A stretch of DNA of 10,343 nucleotides. Origin: Candidatus Heimdallarchaeota archaeon (lineage in GTDB: Archaea; Asgardarchaeota; Heimdallarchaeia; Heimdallarchaeales; Heimdallarchaeaceae). Below the pieces are notes generated by a model. That model did not search any database, was not told the origin of the DNA, and worked only from the letters and a program-made list of their open reading frames with translations. The translations under genes were made by a program, and so were the position numbers. Position 1 is the stretch's first letter. Each line of letters opens with the position of its first letter. Of the stretch, positions 1 to 10,343 are shown piece after piece. The stretch covers positions 1 through 10,343 of the forward strand of contig DAOVET010000092.1 in NCBI GenBank assembly GCA_030668825.1, given 5' to 3'.

Positions 1-200
1 TTATGATGTGTTTTTGTCATCTTGTCATATTAACAAGATAGGTTAATATCTTTCTTAGAGTTCATCATATAGAGTTATGCAACTGTTCTATACTCACTCT
101 GAGCGGATACATCACGTATCCTCCTACCCCGTTCGCTGTGCACTTAGGCAAAGCTTTCGGATCGCTTTTAACCAAGATATTGTAAGCTGCATTGACATCA
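1..200 (-). ncRNA. Putative TnpB omegaRNA (reRNA) scaffold overlapping the tnpB 3' end; limits approximate
   Basis: omegaRNAs are known to derive from the tnpB 3' end/right end. Inverted repeats seen: 105-110/116-121 (GGATAC/GTATCC), 68-92 (TATAG-AGTT..AACT..CTATA), 27-34/42-49 (ATATTAAC/GTTAATAT), 19-25/33-39, 2-8/63-69. Confidence 0.55.
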
Positions 201-1324
201 GCATTAATCAAGTGTCCTCGAGCAGATCTGAACAACCCCCGTTTAACTCTTCTCCCCATATATCTGGTTTGATATTGGGGAAACTCGTTATCGAGAAAAC
301 TACATTTAGAGGTGTACTCTTCTGGGATGAGCTCAACATTTATCCCTCGCTCTGCAGCTTTATACTTGAGCATGTTGATAATACGCATATAAGGGATGGT
401 GACAAACATTTGGGTGACTTTTTTCCAGAAATGCACCTCTTGTTTCCACTTCTTGTTGTACCCAATTATCACCTCATGAATATCTCGTTCAACCCACAAT
501 TCAACTAGATACTGGGTGAGTTTGTGGATAGCATCCTTGAGTTTCATCCTCCACTTCTCCCGAAGCTGGTAAAATGATGTTCCATACCGTAGTTTGTTCT
601 TTGTTTTCAGCTGTTGGCGTTGCTGCAGGACATATTGTTCTCTTAGTTTGGTCTGTTGTTTCAGATAATATTGTGTTAGTGATTTGATTCCTTTCCCGTG
701 ATCCTTGATAACAATCGGTTGATTTCCGAGGTTATCCACAAAGGTCACGAGATTGGTCATCCCTAAATCGATCGCTCCTTTCATTGTGGGGTTCTTCTTT
801 ACGTTTGGAATGGTCTTGAGATAGATCAGTTCTATCGTATACCCTACCCTTCGGGGGATGATGCGCACTTCCCTCAGTTTAGTAGCTGCTGTCAACCTAG
901 TTTTGTAATAATACCCTACTTTCTTGGGTAACACTAGCCATCCATTCCTTATCTTCGCTTGTTGGTTGCTGAAGATAGCCACCATCTCCCCATCTTTAGG
1001 TTTGTAACCAGGAGGACGAGGCATAGCGAAGAATAAGTCAGGATCCTTCTTCCACTCCTTTAGAGCCCGGAAATACCCTTTCCAATTCCTACAGAGGAGT
1101 TTCAAAGTTTGTTGAGCTGTATGAGCTGGGAGGAGTTTGTAGCACTCTTCTGTTTGGAGAAGGGTGTTTAGGTCATAATAGAACAGGAGCTTGTTCTGCT
1201 GGTTGAGGGAGGTTTTGCTGAGGAAATTCGCTCGATTATAGAGATTCTTTACTTGATGACAAAGCTTGCTTAACGTTGGATGATAGGAAACTTCTATACA
1301 TTCCGCTCTTACTACTTGTGTCAT
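65..1324 (-). CDS. tnpB: RNA-guided endonuclease TnpB (IS200/IS605 superfamily), rearranged-RuvC type
   Basis: N-terminal KNLYNRAN and AQQTLK..NWKGYF..PGYK motifs; RuvC-I AIDLG (D187); RuvC-II region VIIGYNKKWKQ with alternative Glu in PEEYTSKC; RuvC-III INADVNAAYNI (D377). Numbering follows the ORF track, whose start at 1327 is TTG; the ATG at 1324 is preferred. Confidence 0.95.
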   Translation of the reverse strand: MTQVVRAECIEVSYHPTLSKLCHQVKNLYNRANFLSKTSLNQQNKLLFYYDLNTLLQTEECYKLLPAHTAQQTLKLLCRNWKGYFRALKEWKKDPDLFFAMPRPPGYKPKDGEMVAIFSNQQAKIRNGWLVLPKKVGYYYKTRLTAATKLREVRIIPRRVGYTIELIYLKTIPNVKKNPTMKGAIDLGMTNLVTFVDNLGNQPIVIKDHGKGIKSLTQYYLKQQTKLREQYVLQQRQQLKTKNKLRYGTSFYQLREKWRMKLKDAIHKLTQYLVELWVERDIHEVIIGYNKKWKQEVHFWKKVTQMFVTIPYMRIINMLKYKAAERGINVELIPEEYTSKCSFLDNEFPQYQTRYMGRRVKRGLFRSARGHLINADVNAAYNILVKSDPKALPKCTANGVGGYVMYPLRVSIEQLHNSI

Positions 1325-1346
1325 CAATAATTCAGTTGTATTTTCC

Positions 1347-1353
1347 TATAAAA
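1347..1353 (-). promoter_or_regulatory. Putative archaeal TATA box (TTTTATA) for tnpB
   Basis: Lies -29..-23 from ATG 1324, the spacing expected for a leaderless transcript. Confidence 0.5.
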
Positions 1354-1430
1354 GCTCCAGTAATATCTGCTGCAGAGCATACGTTCAGAGTGATTGTTAG
1401 TTCATTTAGCAAGACTACATGACAAATATC

Positions 1431-1438
1431 TTTTATAA
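1431..1438 (+). promoter_or_regulatory. Putative TATA box (TTTTATAA)
   Basis: Lies -33..-26 from ATG 1464. Confidence 0.5.
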
Positions 1439-1463
1439 TGTTCCTTGTTTTATCTACTTCAGA

Positions 1464-2183
1464 ATGAAAAGAGACTCCTTAGTAATTGCTACTGCTTCGG
1501 TGATGATACTGGCGTTTACACTGTCTTTGCTTAACATTTATGTCTTTCCAGATATTTTCTTCAATACTAAAATAGAATACAATACTCAAAGCGATACTTT
1601 ACTTGGGCTTTTACATCAAGCAGAAAATATAGGAGTGAATTCTGATCTCTTTGAAAACATGAACACCACTTATCTTATTTATGATGCTCCTGTAAATGCT
1701 ATGGTGAACATTTCACTTATAATTTCGTCAATAGAAGCTAGAATTTCAGCTGTTTATGATTTCCCAGATTTGATGCCTAGAAGAATGACGTTGAACTATA
1801 ATGGTACAATACTTGGAGTTGCTAATAGTTCTGCACAGTATGAAGACTGGATAGAAACAGTTTTTGATAATGGTGAAGGAGGAACTTATTTCAGCTATTG
1901 GGATAATATAACGGAAGAATATATCAGTTACTCTAGACATGAAAATTTGAATGTAGCTGATTATACTATAGAGAATGCAAAAAACATTTTGGCAACAATC
2001 TTTCAAGATGAGAATAGAAGACCAGATTTCGTAATCTATCAACTTGTATCTTACACAGAAAGCAGAGGGCTTTTCAATAGGTATTCTACAGATTTTGAGA
2101 GAATCATTTTTGTTGAAGCTAGTGGTTCAATTACTTTCTTTATGTCAAATGAAGGTATATGGACAAAGCCTTTTCTCCTATAG
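1464..2183 (+). CDS. Hypothetical N-terminally membrane-anchored or secreted protein
   Basis: From ATG 1464 the protein reads MKRD + hydrophobic LVIATASVMILAFTLSLLNIYVF, then an acidic domain with five N-x-S/T sequons (NTT, NIS, NGT, NSS, NIT). The ORF-track start at 1419 would place the TATA box inside the gene. No family recognised. Confidence 0.75.
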   Translation: MKRDSLVIATASVMILAFTLSLLNIYVFPDIFFNTKIEYNTQSDTLLGLLHQAENIGVNSDLFENMNTTYLIYDAPVNAMVNISLIISSIEARISAVYDFPDLMPRRMTLNYNGTILGVANSSAQYEDWIETVFDNGEGGTYFSYWDNITEEYISYSRHENLNVADYTIENAKNILATIFQDENRRPDFVIYQLVSYTESRGLFNRYSTDFERIIFVEASGSITFFMSNEGIWTKPFLL

Positions 2184-2208
2184 AACACTTGGTTTCCTTT
2201 TACACAAC

Positions 2209-2216
2209 TTTTAAAA
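2209..2216 (+). promoter_or_regulatory. Putative TATA box (TTTTAAAA)
   Basis: Lies -31..-24 from ATG 2240. Confidence 0.45.
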
Positions 2217-2239
2217 TATAGAATCATCAAATTAAAAAT

Positions 2240-2743
2240 ATGGCACAATCAAGCGCTCCATTTGGTTTTAAAGTAACACAAAGAATACTTGCTTTAAGAG
2301 CAACTTATGATATTATCGATGTAGCTACAGGAAATAAGGTCTTTATTGCTAGAAGGCGAATGTTTACCTGGAGACCCAAAATCATTATAGAAAATATCCA
2401 AGGTCAAGAAGTAGCCAAAATAACAGCAAATTACTTCTTCCAAAATAGATGGAAAATTACTGTGGGACAAGACTTAATTGGAGAAATAGAATTTCCAATA
2501 ATAAAATTCTGTGGAATAAGATTTGATGTTATGCTTGCTGGAAATCACTATACTGCTTCTGATGTTTTTGGATGGTCTTTTGAAGCAATAGGAAGAGATG
2601 GAAGTATAGGTTTTACTTTGGATAAAAGATTTTTCAGAATTAAGGATACTTACAGAGTAGATGTATATCCACCACTGGAACCTTTATTCGGACTAGCTGC
2701 AGTTCTAGCAATTGATTCTAGATACTATCAAGGAAATCGCTAG
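2240..2743 (+). CDS. LURP-one-related / scramblase family protein (tubby C-terminal-like fold, YxjI-like)
   Basis: 167 aa; FKVTQRILALRATYDI, RRRMFTWRPKIII..QGQEVAKI, KRFFRIKDTYRVDV and C-terminal buried helix LAAVLAIDS match the LURP-one pattern. Confidence 0.8.
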   Translation: MAQSSAPFGFKVTQRILALRATYDIIDVATGNKVFIARRRMFTWRPKIIIENIQGQEVAKITANYFFQNRWKITVGQDLIGEIEFPIIKFCGIRFDVMLAGNHYTASDVFGWSFEAIGRDGSIGFTLDKRFFRIKDTYRVDVYPPLEPLFGLAAVLAIDSRYYQGNR

Positions 2744-2750
2744 ATTCCCC

Positions 2751-2762
2751 TTTTTTTCTTTT
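2751..2762 (+). terminator. Archaeal oligo-T terminator candidate
   Basis: TTTTTTTCTTTT a few nucleotides after the stop at 2743. Confidence 0.55.
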
Positions 2763-2776
2763 GAAAGATTTTTAAA
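2763..2776 (+). promoter_or_regulatory. Putative BRE + TATA box (GAAAGA-TTTTTAAA)
   Basis: TATA at -30..-23 from ATG 2799, preceded by a purine-rich BRE-like sequence. Confidence 0.6.
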
Positions 2777-2798
2777 TGCTTACTTTTTCTCATTGTTA

Positions 2799-3668
2799 AT
2801 GAAAAAGAAAAAGAAAGAATATGTTTTGCCTTTAGTTTCCCAATTTGAGAAAGAAGCTAAGCCACTTGATGTGATGATGTCAGATAATACTACAACTAGA
2901 GTTTACACAACTAAAGCTCCTGAAGACAAAAGAAACGGATATACTTTGTTTGTTATGCCAGGATGGGGGACAGTGCTTCCTGCATGGGATAAATTTCTTG
3001 TTGATGCTATGAAAGACTTTGATGTTGTCTATTTCGAATCAAGAGAAAAGAGATCAAGTGGTTTTACAAGAAAATCTGATCTCGGCATGCACAGGATGGC
3101 TATGGATATTAAGGATACAATTACTAATCTTAATCTAGATGAGTCAAAACTTGTTCTTTTTGGATCTTGTATAGGGGCAACAACTCTTGCTTATGGAATG
3201 GTTGAAGAGATGTATAATCCTTTCATGCCTGTTCTTCTTGCTCCTCCTGGAAGGTTTGAAGTTCCTCCAGTTTTTAGACAATTGATACCTATTGGTCCAA
3301 CTTTTCTCTGGCCAGTTGCTAAACCAATTATTCGTTATTGGATAAATAAATTCAAATCAGAAGATCGAGAACAAGCTGCAAAGTATATCAGAACCATGGA
3401 AGAAGCAGATCCTAGACGCTGGAAGAGACTGGGTTTAAGACTTGCGTATAAGAGATATTGGAAAACCTTTCCTAAGGTAAAAAATCATGTTCTCCTAATA
3501 GCTGCTGAAATAGATAAAATGCATGATGCTGAAGTTACAAGAAAAGTTGACAAGATGATTGAAAATTCGACATATTTAAACCTTCAAACAAACAGAAATA
3601 CTCATACAGAAGTTATGGTAGAAACAATTAGGGAATATCTATTGAAATTTGAAGGTAAAAATCATTAA
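2799..3668 (+). CDS. Alpha/beta-fold hydrolase with G-S-C-I-G nucleophile elbow
   Basis: LFVMPGWG oxyanion loop, FDVVYFESR strand, LVLFGSCIGA elbow, VLLIAAEIDKM acid motif, late His in NTHTE. The ORF-track TTG start at 2712 overlaps the upstream gene and runs through a terminator and promoter, so ATG 2799 is preferred. Confidence 0.85.
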   Translation: MKKKKKEYVLPLVSQFEKEAKPLDVMMSDNTTTRVYTTKAPEDKRNGYTLFVMPGWGTVLPAWDKFLVDAMKDFDVVYFESREKRSSGFTRKSDLGMHRMAMDIKDTITNLNLDESKLVLFGSCIGATTLAYGMVEEMYNPFMPVLLAPPGRFEVPPVFRQLIPIGPTFLWPVAKPIIRYWINKFKSEDREQAAKYIRTMEEADPRRWKRLGLRLAYKRYWKTFPKVKNHVLLIAAEIDKMHDAEVTRKVDKMIENSTYLNLQTNRNTHTEVMVETIREYLLKFEGKNH

Positions 3669-3687
3669 AAATCTTGAAATTGTTCAT

Positions 3688-3700
3688 GAAAATTTTAATA
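3688..3700 (+). promoter_or_regulatory. Putative BRE + TATA box (GAAAA-TTTTAATA)
   Basis: TATA at -30..-23 from GTG 3723. Confidence 0.6.
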
Positions 3701-3722
3701 CTACTTTCTCTATCGTCTTATT

Positions 3723-4784
3723 GTGAAAATTAAAAGCTTAGGATTAGATGGTGTTAGATCAGTTGAATGGAATGAGGAAAAAAACTGGTTAACTCTTATA
3801 GACCAGAGATTGATTCCTTTTGAGGTTAAATTCAACGATTATACTAATGTTGAAGATATTTGTGGGGCTATTCAAACAATGGTCGTTCGTGGTGCTCCTG
3901 CAATTGGGGCAACAGCAGCTTATGCTACAGCTCTTGCAATTAAAGAAATAGAAAACATACCAGTTTGTGACAAAAAAGCAAAGTTAGAAGAAAAATTAGA
4001 TCTTATTCAAGCAACTCGACCAACGGCTGTTGATTTGAAAAATTACTCCTTTCTGGTCTATCAAGCAGCCTTGGAGACAAATTTCTCCTTTGATGAAACC
4101 TTGCTAGCTGCTAAAAGGTTATCTAACCAAACACTGGAAGAATGTAGATTGATTAGGGAGAAGGGAGTAGAAATAATTGAAGATGGGAACACTATTTTAA
4201 CTCATTGTAATGCTGGACCTTTAGCAACTGTGGATTATGGAACAGCCCTAGGTCCTATTATCAATGCACATAATCAGGGGAAAAATGTCCATGTTTTCGT
4301 AGATGAAACAAGACCTAAACTACAAGGAGCAAAGATTACAGGATGGGAATTGGAACAAGAAGGAATTAGTCATCAAATTATTTCAGACTCAGCAGCTGCT
4401 TTCTTAATGTCTAAAGGAAAAATCGATAAGGTTATTTTAGGAGCTGATAGATGCTTAAAAGATGGAACAATTTCAAATAAAATTGGAACATATTCTGTAG
4501 CTATTGCAGCAAACTATCATAAAGTACCTTTTTATTCAGCTTTCCCATGGTCAACAGTAGATTTAGAATCAGAAAGCATTGAAGACTTTAAAATTGAATT
4601 CAGAGATGAGAATGAAGTAAAGTATGTCAAAAGTAAGGAAGGAGATGTTTTAGTTGCAAATCCAGGGTCAGATGCTTTGAATCCAGCTTTCGATATTACT
4701 CCTCCAGAATTGATTACAGGTTATATAACCTCTAAAGGAGTGTTGAATCAAGAAGAATTAATGAATGAAATAAATAAAAAATAG
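3723..4784 (+). CDS. mtnA: S-methyl-5-thioribose-1-phosphate isomerase (eIF-2B alpha/beta/delta family)
   Basis: LIDQRLIP, MVVRGAPAIG, ATRPTAV, ILTHCNAGPLATVDYGTA (catalytic Cys), VDETRP.LQGAKIT.WEL, GADR (catalytic Asp), NKIGTY, NPAFDITP. GTG start. Confidence 0.93.
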   Translation: MKIKSLGLDGVRSVEWNEEKNWLTLIDQRLIPFEVKFNDYTNVEDICGAIQTMVVRGAPAIGATAAYATALAIKEIENIPVCDKKAKLEEKLDLIQATRPTAVDLKNYSFLVYQAALETNFSFDETLLAAKRLSNQTLEECRLIREKGVEIIEDGNTILTHCNAGPLATVDYGTALGPIINAHNQGKNVHVFVDETRPKLQGAKITGWELEQEGISHQIISDSAAAFLMSKGKIDKVILGADRCLKDGTISNKIGTYSVAIAANYHKVPFYSAFPWSTVDLESESIEDFKIEFRDENEVKYVKSKEGDVLVANPGSDALNPAFDITPPELITGYITSKGVLNQEELMNEINKK

Positions 4785-4794
4785 AAAGAAAGAT

Positions 4795-6669
4795 TTACTT
4801 TCTTTTTCGAATTAAAGTTACAAGAGCTACAAAGCTTATGAAGCTCAGAATAGTTGTTATAATTCCTGGTGCATCAAGAGTTAGAGTGTTTGAATTACCA
4901 GGGGTTGTAGGTTCTGTTGTATCTGTTGGATCAGTTGGACTAGTAATATCTTCAGTGATTACTACATAAACAGAAGCATAGTTTGGGTTTCCAGAAAGAT
5001 CATAGACATCTAGTTCAAAGAACCAAGTACCTACATTAAATGTATCAAGATCAATAATTACATTGAAATCTTCAATAAACCAAGGAGTATTAAGAATCTC
5101 AGTACCATTTACTTTTACAACATAACTACCTGGATTCTCATCTTGAATATTCCAAACTAATTGAACATTATCTCCTTTTTTGAGGGTTATAGTACTAGTA
5201 GGTCCTGTAATCAGCGGTGGAGTTGTATCTGATACATCTGAAGCATGTATTATCAAGTCTTTATAGGTTTCATATCCCATAAGATCTATTGCATAGACTG
5301 TTACAAAATGGTCCCCTACAGTGGTGATATTTGTTTCAAGCATTAGATTGACTTCCATACCATCGAACCAACTTCCAGAGCTAACTACTAACCCATTCAG
5401 TTTAAGTTCATAATAATCAGGATTGTCATAATCATCATAGAGATTCCAATTTATAATATCGAAAGTACCTATAGTATAGTAGAAATCTCCTTCTGGACCA
5501 GTAATTCTCGGCCAATCAGGTCTTATGTCTTGAATTTCAAGTGCCCAAGTTGTATTGTGTTCAAAACTTGCATCATCATATACAACAAACTGTACTGTAT
5601 GATTGCTTGAACTTACTGGAATACTCTTTGTATCCAAATGATAGACATTATTTCCTGGTGCCAAATCATATATAGTATCTACTTTTGTTCCATCCAAAAA
5701 GACTTCAATTGTCATTGAAGGCCATGAATTATACAAATCAAAGTAAAATGGAAGTGTATCACTATCTCCTCTTATATCATATGTATATCCCATGTCCAAT
5801 AGTAATGCTGGAAGATCTGCATCTGAGACAGGATTAAAGGCAGCATTTGTTTCATAAAGTTGCCAATGATATTGATAAGCATAGGTGTGATTATAGTAAT
5901 AATCAACCCATGTTCCTAAATCTGCACTATATTTATTATCTATTAATCTGTAATAATTATCATAATACATTGTTGTGTATTCAAGTAGAAAACCAGTAGT
6001 ATTATCTACATAAAACACATCTTGCCATCCATATGGATTGTCTTCTTGGACAGTAATACCATGATAATCTAGAACGGTATTAATATTATCAGCCCAAGTG
6101 TCTATATAAACATCAACTGTGTAGGAGCTATTTTCACCATTAATTACATAATATTTGACTTCAGCATGATCATAGTAACTTGGTGAAAACCAATTTGTTG
6201 TATCTAGATTTAAAGTACCATTATAAACATCAAAGTTTTCAACCGAGAATCCACTTAATGTTACAGGCACTAGATCTACATATGAATCATTGAGCTTCCA
6301 AGCTGAATCTACATAATCATAATAAAATTCTTTTTGTGTTCTATTGTTATTACGATCATAAAGTGTCCAAGCATAATCTACATTACCAGTAGTTGTATCA
6401 ATTGAATTAACAGTATAGCTTTCCATCTCATCGTAGGTATAGTCCCAATGATCAATTACCCAATGAGACTCTGCTGCTGGTGAGACGTCAGTTTCATGAA
6501 GAAGTTGTGATTCTAAATCTTCATAAAAAGTTAAGACGTTTTTGTATAATAGTTGATCTCCAGGTGTTAAAGGTTGGTATACCGTAACAGAACTTACAGG
6601 TTGGTATCCAACTACAAACATAGAGACAACTAAAACAATTAATATAATTGTTGTTTGACCCCTTTTCAA
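4795..6669 (-). CDS. Cell-surface glycoprotein: signal peptide, Tyr/Asp-rich domain, about three Ig-like modules, Thr/Pro linker, C-terminal LDAPG-TM-basic anchor
   Basis: MKRG + hydrophobic signal; Ig-like repeats (P.ITGP..W.L.D..PD.YE..LNG..W..VGD..YAIDLMG; DTTPP.ITGP..WNIQDENP..NGT..VGTW..DLSGN); about ten N-x-S/T sequons; ends ..VTLIRKRK. TTG start. Confidence 0.85.
   Translation of the reverse strand: MKRGQTTIILIVLVVSMFVVGYQPVSSVTVYQPLTPGDQLLYKNVLTFYEDLESQLLHETDVSPAAESHWVIDHWDYTYDEMESYTVNSIDTTTGNVDYAWTLYDRNNNRTQKEFYYDYVDSAWKLNDSYVDLVPVTLSGFSVENFDVYNGTLNLDTTNWFSPSYYDHAEVKYYVINGENSSYTVDVYIDTWADNINTVLDYHGITVQEDNPYGWQDVFYVDNTTGFLLEYTTMYYDNYYRLIDNKYSADLGTWVDYYYNHTYAYQYHWQLYETNAAFNPVSDADLPALLLDMGYTYDIRGDSDTLPFYFDLYNSWPSMTIEVFLDGTKVDTIYDLAPGNNVYHLDTKSIPVSSSNHTVQFVVYDDASFEHNTTWALEIQDIRPDWPRITGPEGDFYYTIGTFDIINWNLYDDYDNPDYYELKLNGLVVSSGSWFDGMEVNLMLETNITTVGDHFVTVYAIDLMGYETYKDLIIHASDVSDTTPPLITGPTSTITLKKGDNVQLVWNIQDENPGSYVVKVNGTEILNTPWFIEDFNVIIDLDTFNVGTWFFELDVYDLSGNPNYASVYVVITEDITSPTDPTDTTEPTTPGNSNTLTLDAPGIITTILSFISFVALVTLIRKRK
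4913..4939. repeat. Three imperfect 9-bp tandem repeats encoding the Thr/Pro linker
   Basis: tctgttgta-tctgttgga-tcagttgga on the plus strand encodes the PTDPTDTTE part of the linker on the minus strand. Confidence 0.6.
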
Positions 6670-6706
6670 GGTTAATCCCCTAATATATATTGAAGCAATT
6701 TTCTCC

Positions 6707-6713
6707 TTTTAAA
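6707..6713 (-). promoter_or_regulatory. Putative TATA box (TTTAAAA) for 4795..6669
   Basis: Starts at -44 from TTG 6669, the same offset as in the paralog. Confidence 0.4.
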
Positions 6714-6753
6714 TGAAGTGGTAGAGTAATCAGCCATTAGCTTTGAAATATAG

Positions 6754-6777
6754 AAATAAATAAAAAAAGAAAGGGAA
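6754..6777 (-). terminator. Oligo-T terminator candidate
   Basis: Pyrimidine/T-rich tract on the minus strand immediately after the stop at 6779. Confidence 0.55.
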
Positions 6778-6778
6778 T

Positions 6779-8620
6779 TTATTTACGTTTCTTAACGTAA
6801 ACTGTTAATGCTGTAATGCTTAGAAAACCTATGACTGCAAAGATTAATCCTGGGGCGTCGAGAGTTATTGTATTTGTATCAGTTGGTTCTGTTGGATTGA
6901 TACCTTCTTCAGTGACATAAACATAAACTGTATCATAGTTGATATTTCCAAAGGAATCTTTAACTTCAATCTCAAAAACCCATGTTCCTAATGTTAAAGT
7001 ACTCAGAGAAACATTAACATTGAAGTTGTCAATAGCCCATGGTAAATCGGTGATTATAGACCCATTCTGTGTAACCAAGTAGCTAGATGGATTATCATCA
7101 GAAATTGTCCAAATAATTTCTTTGTTTTCTCCTGGTTTCATGTAAATATCTGCAGGACTAGTAACAGTAGGTGGTGTTGTTTCTGCTGTATATGAAGCAT
7201 GTATAGTTAAGTCTAGATAAGACTCATGACCCATTGTATCACTTGCATAAATGTGTACAATATAGTCTCCTGGAGAAATAATTGTATCATTTAAATTGAT
7301 ACCTAGTATTTTTCCATCCATCCAACTACCATCATCTAAAATCATACCATCAAATTTGAATTCGAAGAAATCTGAATCATAATTATCATCAGTCAAAGTC
7401 CAGTAGAGAGTCTTAGTTGTACCTATCTCGTACCAATAGTCACCAAATGGTCCGTTTATCTGTGGCCAATCAAGTCTTGTATCAAACATCCATAACGACC
7501 ATTCAGTCTTATGATCCACATCAAATGTATCTGTTGCAACAATCGTCAGTTCGTGAACAAAGTAACCTGGAGGAATGTCATCGAAGTAAACTTTGTAACT
7601 ATGGTAACCAGCAGTTAATCCAAACAGAGTTTCAATATAAACACCATCTCGATAAATATCTAGATCCACTTGAGTAGAATCGTATAACCAGAAGAATACT
7701 TCAACAAAATCACTGTAGCCTGTGATATCATATATATACATCCAATCCCATTCTAAACCGGGCAAATCAGCATCTGCAACAGGAGTAAATCCTGCAGTTG
7801 TTTGGACTAGATAATAGTGCATATCTATGTGACTATAATAATAATAATCTCTTGTAATATTTGTTACTAATGTAGTACTGTATTGTTCAATAAAGTTTGA
7901 CCATTGTTGATAGTCATCTACATATTCATATTCTAAAAGAAAACCAGTTACATTATCTATGTAATAAGTATAATCGTACGAATAATCAACATAATTATCA
8001 TAGTATACTTCGTAGTATGAAGAATTGCTAACATAGGAATCTGCATATCCATAAGTATAAACATCAACAGTATAACTATTTGATATACCGTTAATTATGT
8101 ATGTCTTACTAGTAGTATGAGAATAAGTTAGTGAAGTAAACATATATTGTATATCGAGGTTAAGAACTGGATTAAAGTGTGAGATTATTTCAGAAAATGT
8201 GTTACTTCCTGAATAAAGATCAGAACTAAATCCATTATAATCAAAAAACCAACTTTCTGAAATATAATCGTAGTAATAGTGGTCCCAATAGTCATCTCTA
8301 TATGTATCTTGATATTTTGAAGTGTGTCTAACATCGTAATCTGAAGGATTCATAGCATTTATGGTATAACTATGTGTTTCAACTGATGTCATTTCATGAT
8401 AGTTTGTATCCCAATAGGAATTGTAACTAGGTGACAAATCAGTATGATATAGCACTAGTGATTCATAATCATAATACGAGTTGTAATCCACAGAGTAAAG
8501 CAGTTGGTCACCAACTTTTAAAGGTTTATAAGCATTTACTGGGTTTACGTTAATTAAACCCCCTACAAAAATAGTTATAATTAAATTTACGCATATAATA
8601 TATCCGATACCTCTTTTCAA
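6779..8620 (-). CDS. Cell-surface glycoprotein, paralog of 4795..6669 (LDAPG-TM-basic anchor)
   Basis: Colinear shared motifs: Y.PL..GDQLLY, HTDLSP, YTVDVY, DN.TGFLLEY, DADLP, DWP.I.GP.GD, TTPP, T.TLDAPG. TTG at 8620 gives MKRG.. like the paralog; the ORF-track start at 8695 runs through the promoter. Confidence 0.85.
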   Translation of the reverse strand: MKRGIGYIICVNLIITIFVGGLINVNPVNAYKPLKVGDQLLYSVDYNSYYDYESLVLYHTDLSPSYNSYWDTNYHEMTSVETHSYTINAMNPSDYDVRHTSKYQDTYRDDYWDHYYYDYISESWFFDYNGFSSDLYSGSNTFSEIISHFNPVLNLDIQYMFTSLTYSHTTSKTYIINGISNSYTVDVYTYGYADSYVSNSSYYEVYYDNYVDYSYDYTYYIDNVTGFLLEYEYVDDYQQWSNFIEQYSTTLVTNITRDYYYYSHIDMHYYLVQTTAGFTPVADADLPGLEWDWMYIYDITGYSDFVEVFFWLYDSTQVDLDIYRDGVYIETLFGLTAGYHSYKVYFDDIPPGYFVHELTIVATDTFDVDHKTEWSLWMFDTRLDWPQINGPFGDYWYEIGTTKTLYWTLTDDNYDSDFFEFKFDGMILDDGSWMDGKILGINLNDTIISPGDYIVHIYASDTMGHESYLDLTIHASYTAETTPPTVTSPADIYMKPGENKEIIWTISDDNPSSYLVTQNGSIITDLPWAIDNFNVNVSLSTLTLGTWVFEIEVKDSFGNINYDTVYVYVTEEGINPTEPTDTNTITLDAPGLIFAVIGFLSITALTVYVKKRK

Positions 8621-8656
8621 GGTTGAACACCCTAACAGATTCTTAGTCAGTTTATA

Positions 8657-8665
8657 TATATAAAA
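8657..8665 (-). promoter_or_regulatory. Putative TATA box (TTTTATATA) for 6779..8620
   Basis: TTTA starts at -44 from TTG 8620; overlaps the palindrome TTTATATATATAAA at 8651-8664. Confidence 0.5.
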
Positions 8666-8716
8666 CAATAGATGAAGGAAAGTATGTAAAAACAATATGT
8701 TGCTTTACATGAAATG

Positions 8717-8739
8717 AAAAAAATAAAAAGAGGAAGAAG
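8717..8739 (-). terminator. Oligo-T terminator candidate
   Basis: Pyrimidine/T-rich tract on the minus strand right after the stop at 8741. Confidence 0.55.
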
Positions 8740-8740
8740 A

Positions 8741-9691
8741 CTATTTCTTCTTTCGTTTAATTACAGCTATCAACCCAATGGTTGCTATTCCTAAGACAAT
8801 TCCTAAGGTTGAAAATGGTATTCCAGCAGTTAGTTTCACAACACCTGGAACAAATTCCCATGTCTTAACATTGTCTGTCTCAACAACTCTCAATATGAGT
8901 CCTGTACTTGCTTCATAGTAGATGTGTAACTCAGGAGCATCCCACCAACCAAAAAGAGAACTATCCTGATATTGCACATGAATAGCATCATAAGACTTGC
9001 CTTCAGAGGTTACAACTGCAGGTTTGTCGATGACAACTCCCAGAGAATCGAAGAAATTAATTTGGTCACCGACATTTGCTGTAGGAGTTATTCCGAATAA
9101 TGTCCATTCATACAATATTGAAAATCCATAACTGAAAAGTGCAAATACTATCATAAAATCATTGATTTCTGGATATACTGCATCATTTGGTAAGACATTT
9201 CCATAAGTATAGGTTGTACCATTTTTGTAAGTTATTTTTGTATTATTTAGGTTAGTTAAACCTGCATAAGTTGTCTGATCTAAAATAGATATTTCTATTG
9301 ATTCTGTCGCATTTTGCATATACCAACGTCCTATCATGAATGTGGTTCTATTATCATAGAATACTAAATGAGTAAATTCGAATTTCTCCTCATTTTCCAT
9401 CATTCCAAAATGGGGAAGCATTTCTGAAGTTAGATCAATTGAAAGTAGAATTTGAACAACTTTATCTGGTATATCTGACGGTGTAAAAATATCCTCTACC
9501 TTTATTGTAGGGTAGCCAACTAAAGCATCAGTCACAGTTGTATTTGTAAAGAACAATTTACCTTCAACATAAGCACCATTATTCAGTGCTAGTTGATCAG
9601 ATGCAATTAGACCTTTAGAGAGGTCTGCAGCAAGAATTGAAGTTATTAGGAATCCTAATAAAAATATTGACATAAATGTTTTTCTTTTCAT
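8741..9691 (-). CDS. Secreted/cell-surface protein with C-terminal GIPFST-TM-basic anchor
   Basis: Signal peptide MKRKTFMSIFLLGFLITSILAA; sequons NTT, NRT, NAT, NNT, NGT; ends AGIPFSTLGIVLGIATIGLIAVIKRKKK. Confidence 0.85.
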   Translation of the reverse strand: MKRKTFMSIFLLGFLITSILAADLSKGLIASDQLALNNGAYVEGKLFFTNTTVTDALVGYPTIKVEDIFTPSDIPDKVVQILLSIDLTSEMLPHFGMMENEEKFEFTHLVFYDNRTTFMIGRWYMQNATESIEISILDQTTYAGLTNLNNTKITYKNGTTYTYGNVLPNDAVYPEINDFMIVFALFSYGFSILYEWTLFGITPTANVGDQINFFDSLGVVIDKPAVVTSEGKSYDAIHVQYQDSSLFGWWDAPELHIYYEASTGLILRVVETDNVKTWEFVPGVVKLTAGIPFSTLGIVLGIATIGLIAVIKRKKK

Positions 9692-9713
9692 TGCAATTAA
9701 TAATATTGATTTG

Positions 9714-9721
9714 CTTATAAA
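9714..9721 (-). promoter_or_regulatory. Putative TATA box (TTTATAAG)
   Basis: Lies -30..-23 from ATG 9691. Confidence 0.6.
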
Positions 9722-9732
9722 GAATGTTTTGC

Positions 9733-9752
9733 AAAAAAAGAGTGAAGGAGAG
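9733..9752 (-). terminator. Oligo-T terminator candidate
   Basis: Pyrimidine tract ending in a T7 run on the minus strand after the stop at 9754. Confidence 0.5.
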
Positions 9753-9753
9753 A

Positions 9754-10343
9754 TTATTTGGTCCTTCTTTTTCTAACAATTAAAGCTAGAGTACTTAAAA
9801 CAGTTAAAGCTGCAATTATTGCTGTTGTTGAGAAGGGAATTCCTACTACGTTCTTAACTTCACCTGGGATGAATTCTACTTTATCTGAACCATAGGTTTC
9901 TATTGTTTTCAGAATTAATCCTGTCTTTGCATCATAAAATACTTCTAATGCAGTTGTAATATCAAAAGCTAATCCATAAGTTGCTACAAGATACTCCACA
10001 TGGATTGTATCAAACGATGCACCAGTTGAAGTTATTACAGCTGGCTTATCAAGTACTATACCTAGATCTGGATCATAGCTGACAGTATCACCAACATTTG
10101 CAAGAGGTGAGATAGCTAAAAATGTCCAATCCCAATAAGTTGCAAAAATTCCATTGAAAATAGCCCATCCAAAAACATATTCACCCAATGCTGAGAGCAA
10201 AGGACTAGATACGACATCACCATAGATATATTCAGTACCATTGTTAAATGTGATTTTGAGATTATCTATATCCATCATACCTACAACTGTTGTGTTATGA
10301 AGAGTAGTCATTGTTACACCAAAAGTATCATTTCCCATGTATA
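9754..10343 (-). CDS. Cell-surface protein, paralog of 8741..9691; 5' end truncated by the window edge
   Basis: Shared KIT..NGT.Y.YG.V, WT...I.P.ANVGD, LG.V.DKPAV.TS.G.S.D.IHV.Y, TGLIL, EF.PG.VK, GIPFST. The frame is open to the edge, and Y-M-G-N aligns with internal YMQN of the paralog, so ATG 10338 is internal. Confidence 0.85.
   Translation of the reverse strand, partial: YMGNDTFGVTMTTLHNTTVVGMMDIDNLKITFNNGTEYIYGDVVSSPLLSALGEYVFGWAIFNGIFATYWDWTFLAISPLANVGDTVSYDPDLGIVLDKPAVITSTGASFDTIHVEYLVATYGLAFDITTALEVFYDAKTGLILKTIETYGSDKVEFIPGEVKNVVGIPFSTTAIIAALTVLSTLALIVRKRRTK

Follow-up and report, generated by a model that had tools for sequence, protein, structure and literature searches.

Putative diverged Heimdall-CTERM tails on surface proteins of a Heimdallarchaeota archaeon

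A stretch of 10,343 nucleotides from a Candidatus Heimdallarchaeota archaeon (contig DAOVET010000092.1 of assembly GCA_030668825.1, positions 1 to 10,343; hereafter the window) carries four consecutive minus-strand open reading frames (ORFs) whose products end in a short motif, a transmembrane (TM) helix and a cluster of basic residues. We read these tails as family-specific, degenerate forms of the Heimdall-CTERM sorting signal (xPGF, TM helix, basic residues) on Sec-secreted type-I surface proteins, which would be handled by the heimdallarchaeosortase (heimosortase), and we assign this reading a probability of about 0.52. The case is good for the two genes that end in GIPFST, a motif that belongs to a family-wide xP-Phi class (Phi = F, V, I, L, Y or M) and is read here as a diverged Heimdall-CTERM. 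For the two genes that end in LDAPG (P-G-[ILV]) the case is weaker: these may be the same kind of tail, but we hold this with less confidence because the motif occurs in a single protein family and T-L-D, not Pro, is what stays invariant in it. Handling of a diverged Heimdall-CTERM by heimosortase is the most economical explanation because the genome holds a conserved enzyme without a model-positive substrate and because xP-Phi stands at the position of PGF on homologous proteins.

Replacement of P-G-F on homologous proteins

Below, G000 denotes the genome of the window, f1 its taxonomic family, f2 to f7 other families of the same class (f5 being a sister family) and g a genus; tail censuses outside G000 cover loci selected by profile or by homology. 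The canonical tails retrieved from relatives have the form [TLS]PGF[EG] and place the Pro between -18 and -21. Matches to the Heimdall-CTERM model (E <= 3e-4) were present in all 22 of the f5 genomes, with 4 to 29 each, and in only 6 of the 30 f1 genomes, with no more than two each and none in G000.

The comparison that carries the interpretation comes from a ~650-amino-acid (aa) solute-binding protein (SBP) of the SBP_bac_5 family (97.4 bits), which was reached through matches of the family-2 (GIPFST) tail profile outside family 2. Its C-terminal 200 residues have homologues in 30/30 f1 and 11/12 f7 genomes. In f7, the tail reads [TNA]PGF[GT] at the helix start in 10 of 12 cases, the others being one PGF further upstream and one YGF. 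In f1, xP[FVILYM]x was found in 27/29 tails (TPFP, TPVP, SPVP, TPIP, TPLP, TPYP and [TA]PMS among them), PGF in 0/29 and neither motif in two; this count is based on the 30 best loci, 29 of them with a tail, and combines a script result of 25/26 with L174, L176 and L177 read by eye. Locus L191 (G052:C196) did not enter the comparison. The Pro of the xP-Phi tails has its mode at -20, overlapping the canonical range. On homologous SBPs, P-G-F is replaced at the same position by P-Phi in f1. Of the relationships considered by the initial annotation, which had suggested a variant of the Loki- or Heimdall-CTERM signals, the comparison thus points to the latter.

Further xP-Phi tails in relatives sit on proteins of quite different size: TPFPVF on the ~650-aa SBPs, TPFS, APVS and SPVNTF on ~1000-aa proteins, SPFGF and APFGF on proteins of ~400 aa, GAPFDW and AAPFNY at 300-350 aa, APFAAL at 636 aa and KTPFS at 361 aa. 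PF-type tails (DSPFPF, LPFSF) are also found in f3 and f4. Since the profile that picked these other carriers includes the motif itself, they document existence and not frequency. The xP-Phi tail class is present on ectodomains without any link in sequence searches.

A conserved heimosortase and two further archaeosortase-like genes

The initial annotation had placed the responsible enzyme outside the window, and candidates are indeed encoded elsewhere in G000. A heimosortase (NF045528) lies on another contig at G000:C91:34550-35152 and scores 259.4 bits against a cut-off of 130. Its Cys95 (in ACTGMQAG), Asn133 and Arg136 (in GNxxRIA) and His163 (in AHD) are invariant over 15 aligned sequences, G000 included. 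The enzyme is above cut-off in 80/83 genomes of the class and in 28/30 of f1. The system is thus not lineage-specific, as had been proposed at first: the enzyme is class-wide and already curated, and only the motif variant is specific to the family. In genus g17 (G071-G081), the heimosortase match falls in open frames of 488-509 aa, compared with ~245 aa elsewhere, and a second weak match was seen in the same frame in G075 and G081 and on another contig in G076; the gene may be fused or tandemly duplicated there.

Two archaeosortase-like paralogs are located at G000:C65:1062-2285 (L001) and G000:C82:49216-50526 (L003). Both pass the general model TIGR04178 (34.5 and 25.1 bits, cut-off 23), neither reaches the cut-off of a named subtype, and both contain a CSGIHS motif; with PF09721, the C65 copy scores 42.5 bits and the C82 copy 20.3 bits (cut-off 25.7). 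Each is embedded in a copy of a duplicated cassette consisting of an acetyltransferase gene and the enzyme, followed on the opposite strand by a GT4 gene, a deacetylase-like gene and a second GT4 gene. Searches with a 288-aa query (E <= 1e-8) found the C65-type family in 27/30 f1 genomes, in the single f2 genome (1/1) and in 0/51 genomes of f3-f7. Among 5.8 billion proteins it has 62 homologues, the named ones of which are called 'exosortase/archaeosortase family protein'.

Conservation of the two motifs

Because homologues keep them, the motifs of the window are more than chance. In family 2, the Pro is invariant in 20/20 tails of relatives and in 21/21 database homologues and is followed by F or Y; P292 is one of 22 invariant columns among 316 residues (21 homologues). 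Family 1 keeps T, L and D of NTxTLD in 18/18 tails, and 14 homologues show no change at N594, T595 and L598. LDAPG, with A at -21 and P at -20 ahead of G and an aliphatic residue, fits the same register and differs from PGF by one substitution; a literal PGF (DAPGF) is present in one family-1 paralog of a relative. Other tail variants of this family include DAPN, DSPN and DAPQ.

The four surface-protein genes of the window

The four genes form two paralog pairs, here called family 1 (LDAPG) and family 2 (GIPFST), and their features are as follows (all on the minus strand).

4795-6669, minus: family-1 surface protein A, 624 aa; signal peptide, large N-terminal beta domain, three immunoglobulin (Ig)-like domains, Pro/Thr-rich linker and tail
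4864-4890, minus: juxtamembrane motif NTLTLDAPG of family-1 protein A; coordinates computed from the ORF
4795-4863, minus: tail of family-1 protein A; TM 4810-4863, RKRK 4798-4809, stop codon 4795-4797
6779-8695, minus: family-1 surface protein B, 638 aa from the first TTG; family hidden Markov model (HMM) 782 bits
6848-6874, minus: juxtamembrane motif NTITLDAPG of family-1 protein B; conservation as in protein A
6779-6847, minus: tail of family-1 protein B; TM 6794-6847, KKRK 6782-6793, stop codon 6779-6781
8741-9691, minus: family-2 surface glycoprotein A, 316 aa; signal peptide, LolA/LolB/YmcC/VioE-like open beta-barrel ectodomain and tail
8807-8824, minus: motif GIPFST of family-2 protein A; P292 invariant in homologues
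8741-8806, minus: tail of family-2 protein A; TM 8759-8806, KRKKK 8744-8758, stop codon 8741-8743
9754-10341, minus: family-2 surface glycoprotein B, C-terminal 195 aa only, 5' end off the contig; family HMM 272.8 bits
9826-9843, minus: motif GIPFST of family-2 protein B; coordinates computed from the ORF
9754-9825, minus: tail of family-2 protein B; TM 9775-9825, RKRRTK 9757-9774, stop codon 9754-9756

The C-termini of all four agree exactly with those quoted in the initial annotation, as do the distances of 20, 20, 20 and 21 residues between the Pro and the first K or R. The description of conserved motifs next to diverged helices was also confirmed. Overall identity is 39% in each pair; NT[LI]TLDAPG is identical within pair 1 apart from the bracketed position and GIPFST fully identical within pair 2, whereas the TM cores of pair 1 agree at only ~5 of 18 positions (hand count on the alignment). 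All full-length copies carry a hydrophobic N-terminal leader, in line with secreted proteins. The true start of family-1 protein B may be further downstream, because its alignment to protein A begins at residue 26.

Comparison with curated signals and known systems

As the initial annotation had expected, no curated CTERM model reached its cut-off on the window proteins, whether whole proteins or tails alone were scanned, and identity with a known curated model was rejected on this ground. With the Heimdall-CTERM model (NF045529, cut-off 24 bits), three of the tails alone scored 16.3, 16.5 and 12.7 bits and protein A gave no match; the best whole-protein score was 13.2 bits, and across the whole genome the best tail of G000 reached 19.0 bits. 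Loki-CTERM (NF033507, cut-off 19.9) came closest with 19.6 bits on the GIPFST protein A tail alone (13.6 bits on the whole protein) and had no match at cut-off genome-wide in G000. LPXTG_anchor scored 15.6, 15.1 and 14.8 bits on window tails, below its cut-off of 15.9. These sub-threshold alignments begin at model positions 4 to 13 and thus mainly reflect helix and basic tail rather than the motif. The PGF-CTERM model was not listed for the window proteins at E <= 10, a result to be read with the HMMER filters in mind, which drop most weak matches, and the ArtA model was not searched alone. Sortase PF04203 had 0 matches in G000 (90.6% complete), and archaeosortase H (NF041736) was not found there either (best 23.6 bits, cut-off 200).

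Among the known systems, Heimdall-CTERM with its heimdallarchaeosortase is the closest. It belongs to the same group of organisms and shares the tripartite layout of motif, TM helix and basic cluster at the extreme C-terminus of secreted proteins, with a similar distance between Pro and basic residues; an intact enzyme is encoded in the same genome, and the canonical signal stands on homologous SBPs of another family. The difference lies in the motif. The window has I-P-F-S and A-P-G-[IL], that is, P-F or P-G-[IL], and not the P-G-F of canonical [TLS]PGF[EG]; scores stay at 12.7 to 16.5 bits against 24, the alignments cover only the TM and basic portion of the model, from positions 5-8 onward, and f1 is nearly devoid of matches. 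Loki-CTERM with archaeosortase H is likewise an Asgard tripartite tail and scored higher on a window tail than any other curated model, but this score remains under its cut-off, only model positions 6-26 (helix and tail) align, and G000 lacks archaeosortase H.

PGF-CTERM with archaeosortase A (ArtA) of Haloferax volcanii resembles the window proteins in its Thr/Pro-rich linker, short Pro motif, TM helix and basic tail on a surface glycoprotein, and its enzyme is of the same superfamily, with conserved residues of the Cys, Arg and His type; both the enzyme subfamily and the motif differ. By the account in part of PMC6098224, C-terminal processing and lipid anchoring have been proven experimentally in this archaeal system alone: the helix is held in the membrane, the motif is recognised, the helix is removed and the protein is anchored to a lipid.

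By analogy with ArtA and PGF-CTERM, the TM helix of the window proteins would keep the exported protein in the membrane and the basic tail would set its orientation. The membrane-embedded heimosortase, with its Cys, Arg and His residues, may then recognise the Pro motif at the outer helix end, cut off the helix and re-anchor the protein, probably to a lipid. Recognition, cleavage and lipidation by this enzyme are inferred from the Haloferax system.

The principle of a tripartite tail served by an archaeosortase is already known; what appears to be new is an uncatalogued, family-specific variant of the motif. Few known organisms are as closely related to eukaryotes as the Heimdall-group archaea, and very little has been learned about how they construct their cell surface. 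If the proposed reading is true, the curated Heimdall-CTERM model misses essentially all substrates of f1, and predictions of the surface proteome are systematically incomplete. The exchange of PGF for P-Phi on homologous SBPs would also offer a natural series for the residues that an archaeosortase needs. The practical gain would be modest, namely a better annotation model and a shortlist for reporter constructs.

Tails across the genome and evidence against the proposed reading

The TM and basic C-terminal layout is found on 88 of 3187 G000 ORFs (of at least 80 aa), which fall into 61 BLAST families and have very diverse pre-helix sequences. The family-2 HMM matches only the two window genes (C35) and one locus on C97, and PF-type tails also occur on C38, C15, C8, C102 (twice), C57, C83 and C131. 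PF stands at the helix boundary in 10/88 tails (8/61 families), compared with 1.5 expected from ectodomain composition and ~4 expected from position-specific frequencies (hand arithmetic). Before internal TM and basic segments, PF is rarer (4/123 vs 10/88, p=0.02), and [ASTGIVL]P[FYW] shows a larger difference (11/88 tails vs 1/123 internal segments, p=3.5e-4); both patterns were picked after inspection of the data, which makes the p-values nominal and is the first of several points that weigh against a degenerate Heimdall-CTERM.

Genome-wide, the signal is faint. A P-Phi motif of any kind is present in only ~7 to 15 of the 88 G000 tails. The fixed Pro register that had been proposed for the motif holds for the four window genes and for the xP-Phi class; it does not extend to the 88 tails, which have no Pro peak at -20 (8/88 there vs 11/88 at -24). 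A profile built from 70 tails of relatives, which had been picked by an xP-Phi regular expression and thus have the motif built in, placed 6 G000 tails at 25 bits or above, against 2.4 motif-shuffled controls. This profile was rejected as a classifier, as the helix and basic tail dominate its scores and the shuffled controls are nearly equal below 25 bits. Within the window, the paralog alignments hold other identical runs of 5-7 residues (SYTVDVY, TGFLLEY, DKPAV), so that identity between paralogs alone is weak evidence.

For LDAPG the objections are stronger. The Pro is present in only 14/18 family-1 tails, the other four reading DSSG (three) and DAQG (one). Full-length matches to a profile of the 18 tails were confined to family 1 (24/24 places, in 19/24 genomes of the genus and in G000). 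Confinement to its own paralogs is an outcome that the initial annotation had named as a refutation, and LDAPG was rejected as a general signal. The same profile has one weak match (21.9 bits) in another family, on a VIT/vWA-type surface protein (L074, G037:C153). Its tail, ...NTVVDTLDSS followed by a TM helix and RRR, is a weak echo of the family-1 NTxTLD on an unrelated ectodomain and possibly due to chance. A tail with NTITLN on G000:C97 resembles the family-1 motif by eye and was taken as chance, since the LDAPG profile has no match there at E <= 1.

The genus also has one near-canonical tail, TPGFG, on a ~405-aa protein in four genomes (loci such as L042, L044 and L045), with a Cys-rich stretch of the C-P-E-C type directly before the motif. 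Retention of the enzyme could be due to this protein alone. Its apparent counterpart in G000 (C103, a 421-aa ORF) reads GLGF and scores 16.8 bits, the orthology being inferred from tail similarity and length only. Furthermore, permutation of PGF to PFG blocks processing by ArtA in H. volcanii, as described in a section of PMC6098224, and small changes of a motif can therefore abolish recognition. Finally, our literature search returned no paper on heimosortase, Heimdall-CTERM or Loki-CTERM; archaeosortase was mentioned together with Asgard or Heimdallarchae only in passing.

Alternative explanations

The strongest competitor, though we consider it unlikely, is that the tails are permanent C-terminal anchors which are never cleaved, with the Pro or NTxTLD serving as a helix cap, a hinge or a family-private contact and heimosortase serving a single near-canonical PGF-type protein. 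The 88 ORFs of 61 families fit this well, since most of their diverse pre-TM sequences have no recognisable motif, and so do the restriction of LDAPG to one family, its dispensable Pro (4/18 tails) and the small contribution of the motif to profile scores; the TPGFG protein of the genus could be the real substrate of the enzyme. The Sulfolobus SlaB-type anchor, in which one C-terminal helix keeps a secreted surface protein in the membrane, provides an archaeal precedent (PMC6098224, in part). Such an anchor, however, needs no conserved motif between linker and helix, whereas the family-2 Pro is invariant and P-Phi replaces the curated motif on the SBPs. A helix cap leaves unexplained why f7 has PGF and f1 has P-Phi at the same SBP position, and why P-aromatic pairs are rarer before internal TM and basic segments (the 4/123 vs 10/88 above). 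Moreover, if the GLGF protein of G000 is the ortholog of the TPGFG protein, the enzyme would be left without even that canonical substrate.

A degenerate Heimdall-CTERM can also be set against a new pairing of enzyme and signal. It is improbable, but conceivable, that the tails are substrates of the lineage-restricted C65/C82 paralogs while heimosortase keeps PGF-type substrates. Both paralogs pass TIGR04178 without falling into a named subtype and share CSGIHS, each lies within a glycan-synthesis cassette, their 62 homologues bear generic names, and their distribution over f1 and f2 and their absence from f3-f7 coincide with a clade that is poor in canonical PGF tails. This co-occurrence, however, is one phylogenetic event. 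The paralogs are absent from the f1 genera g12 and g13 (0/3), yet PGF tails are scarce there (1/3) and the SBPs read TPFM or TPLP; f3 and f4 hold PF-type tails without the paralog; and no substrate-like gene adjoins either copy in G000. Most genomes of the genus have a single place for the paralog and yet both tail types, which likewise led us to reject a pairing of the two motifs with the two extra paralogs. Similarly doubtful is a re-tooling of sorting in f1, in which the cassette-embedded enzymes would have taken over xP-Phi, and perhaps NTxTLDAPG, and left heimosortase with a single PGF-type client; if true, this would be an unrecognised pair of enzyme and signal, possibly coupling C-terminal processing to glycan attachment.

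Least probable is that NTxTLDAPG is a recognition or docking element unrelated to archaeosortases, serving either a rhomboid or CPBP protease or a contact near the membrane between the co-encoded proteins of family 1 and family 2: G000 does encode a rhomboid (98.8 bits) and two tandem CPBP/Rce1-like intramembrane protease genes (G000:C96:43102-44364; 68.6 and 64.1 bits), the genes of the two families lie side by side in several relatives, and T-L-D rather than Pro makes up the invariant part of the motif, but rhomboid and CPBP genes are near-universal in the controls and their presence is thus uninformative.

Folds and distribution of the two protein families

None of the four surface proteins has a Pfam or NCBIfam family above cut-off. 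In an AlphaFold2 (AF2) model of the 316-aa family-2 protein (pLDDT 83.3), a beta-rich ectodomain extends to about residue 286 and a helix spans 295-315; residues 291-294 (IPFS), modelled as coil with low confidence, connect the last strand to this TM helix. The ectodomain resembles the LolA/LolB/YmcC/VioE/RseB/EPDR1 open-barrel superfamily across the whole list of structural matches (Foldseek E 1.9e-5; VIA Z 10.2 against 3fzx, with rmsd 3.7 over 163 residues; Z ~8 against LolA chains). Open beta-barrels of the LolA type usually hold lipids or other hydrophobic ligands. The AF2 model of the 624-aa family-1 protein (pLDDT 83.2) has a helix at 601-623 and confidence below 50 at residues 575-610, which comprise the Pro/Thr-rich linker and NTLTLDAPG ahead of the helix. 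Its Foldseek matches are generic tandem Ig-like adhesin repeats.

Both families are small, with 24 and 16 proteins at E <= 0.001 among 5.8 billion. Named homologues are annotated as 'hypothetical protein' and stem from Heimdall or Asgard metagenome-assembled genomes (MAGs), apart from one weak match in Thorarchaeota; an ortholog with 82% identity is present in a Candidatus Heimdallarchaeota MAG. Family 2 was found in 22/24 genomes of the genus and in 0/16 outside it. Its genes form tandem arrays of 3 to 5 membrane-anchored copies. The adjacency of family-1 and family-2 genes recurs in relatives, for example at G001:C9 and G023:C47 and in G009.

Other genes in the window

The remainder of the window contains a TnpB-type transposase gene, three unassigned ORFs and an eIF-2B/MtnA-family gene. 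The TnpB/IS605 OrfB-type gene (65-1327, minus strand) lies near the contig end and matches OrfB_IS605 with 49.3 bits and the Cas12f1-like TNB domain with 48.1 bits. A 167-aa ORF (2240-2743, plus strand) has a LURP-one-related (LOR) match below threshold (18.4 vs 24.5 bits).

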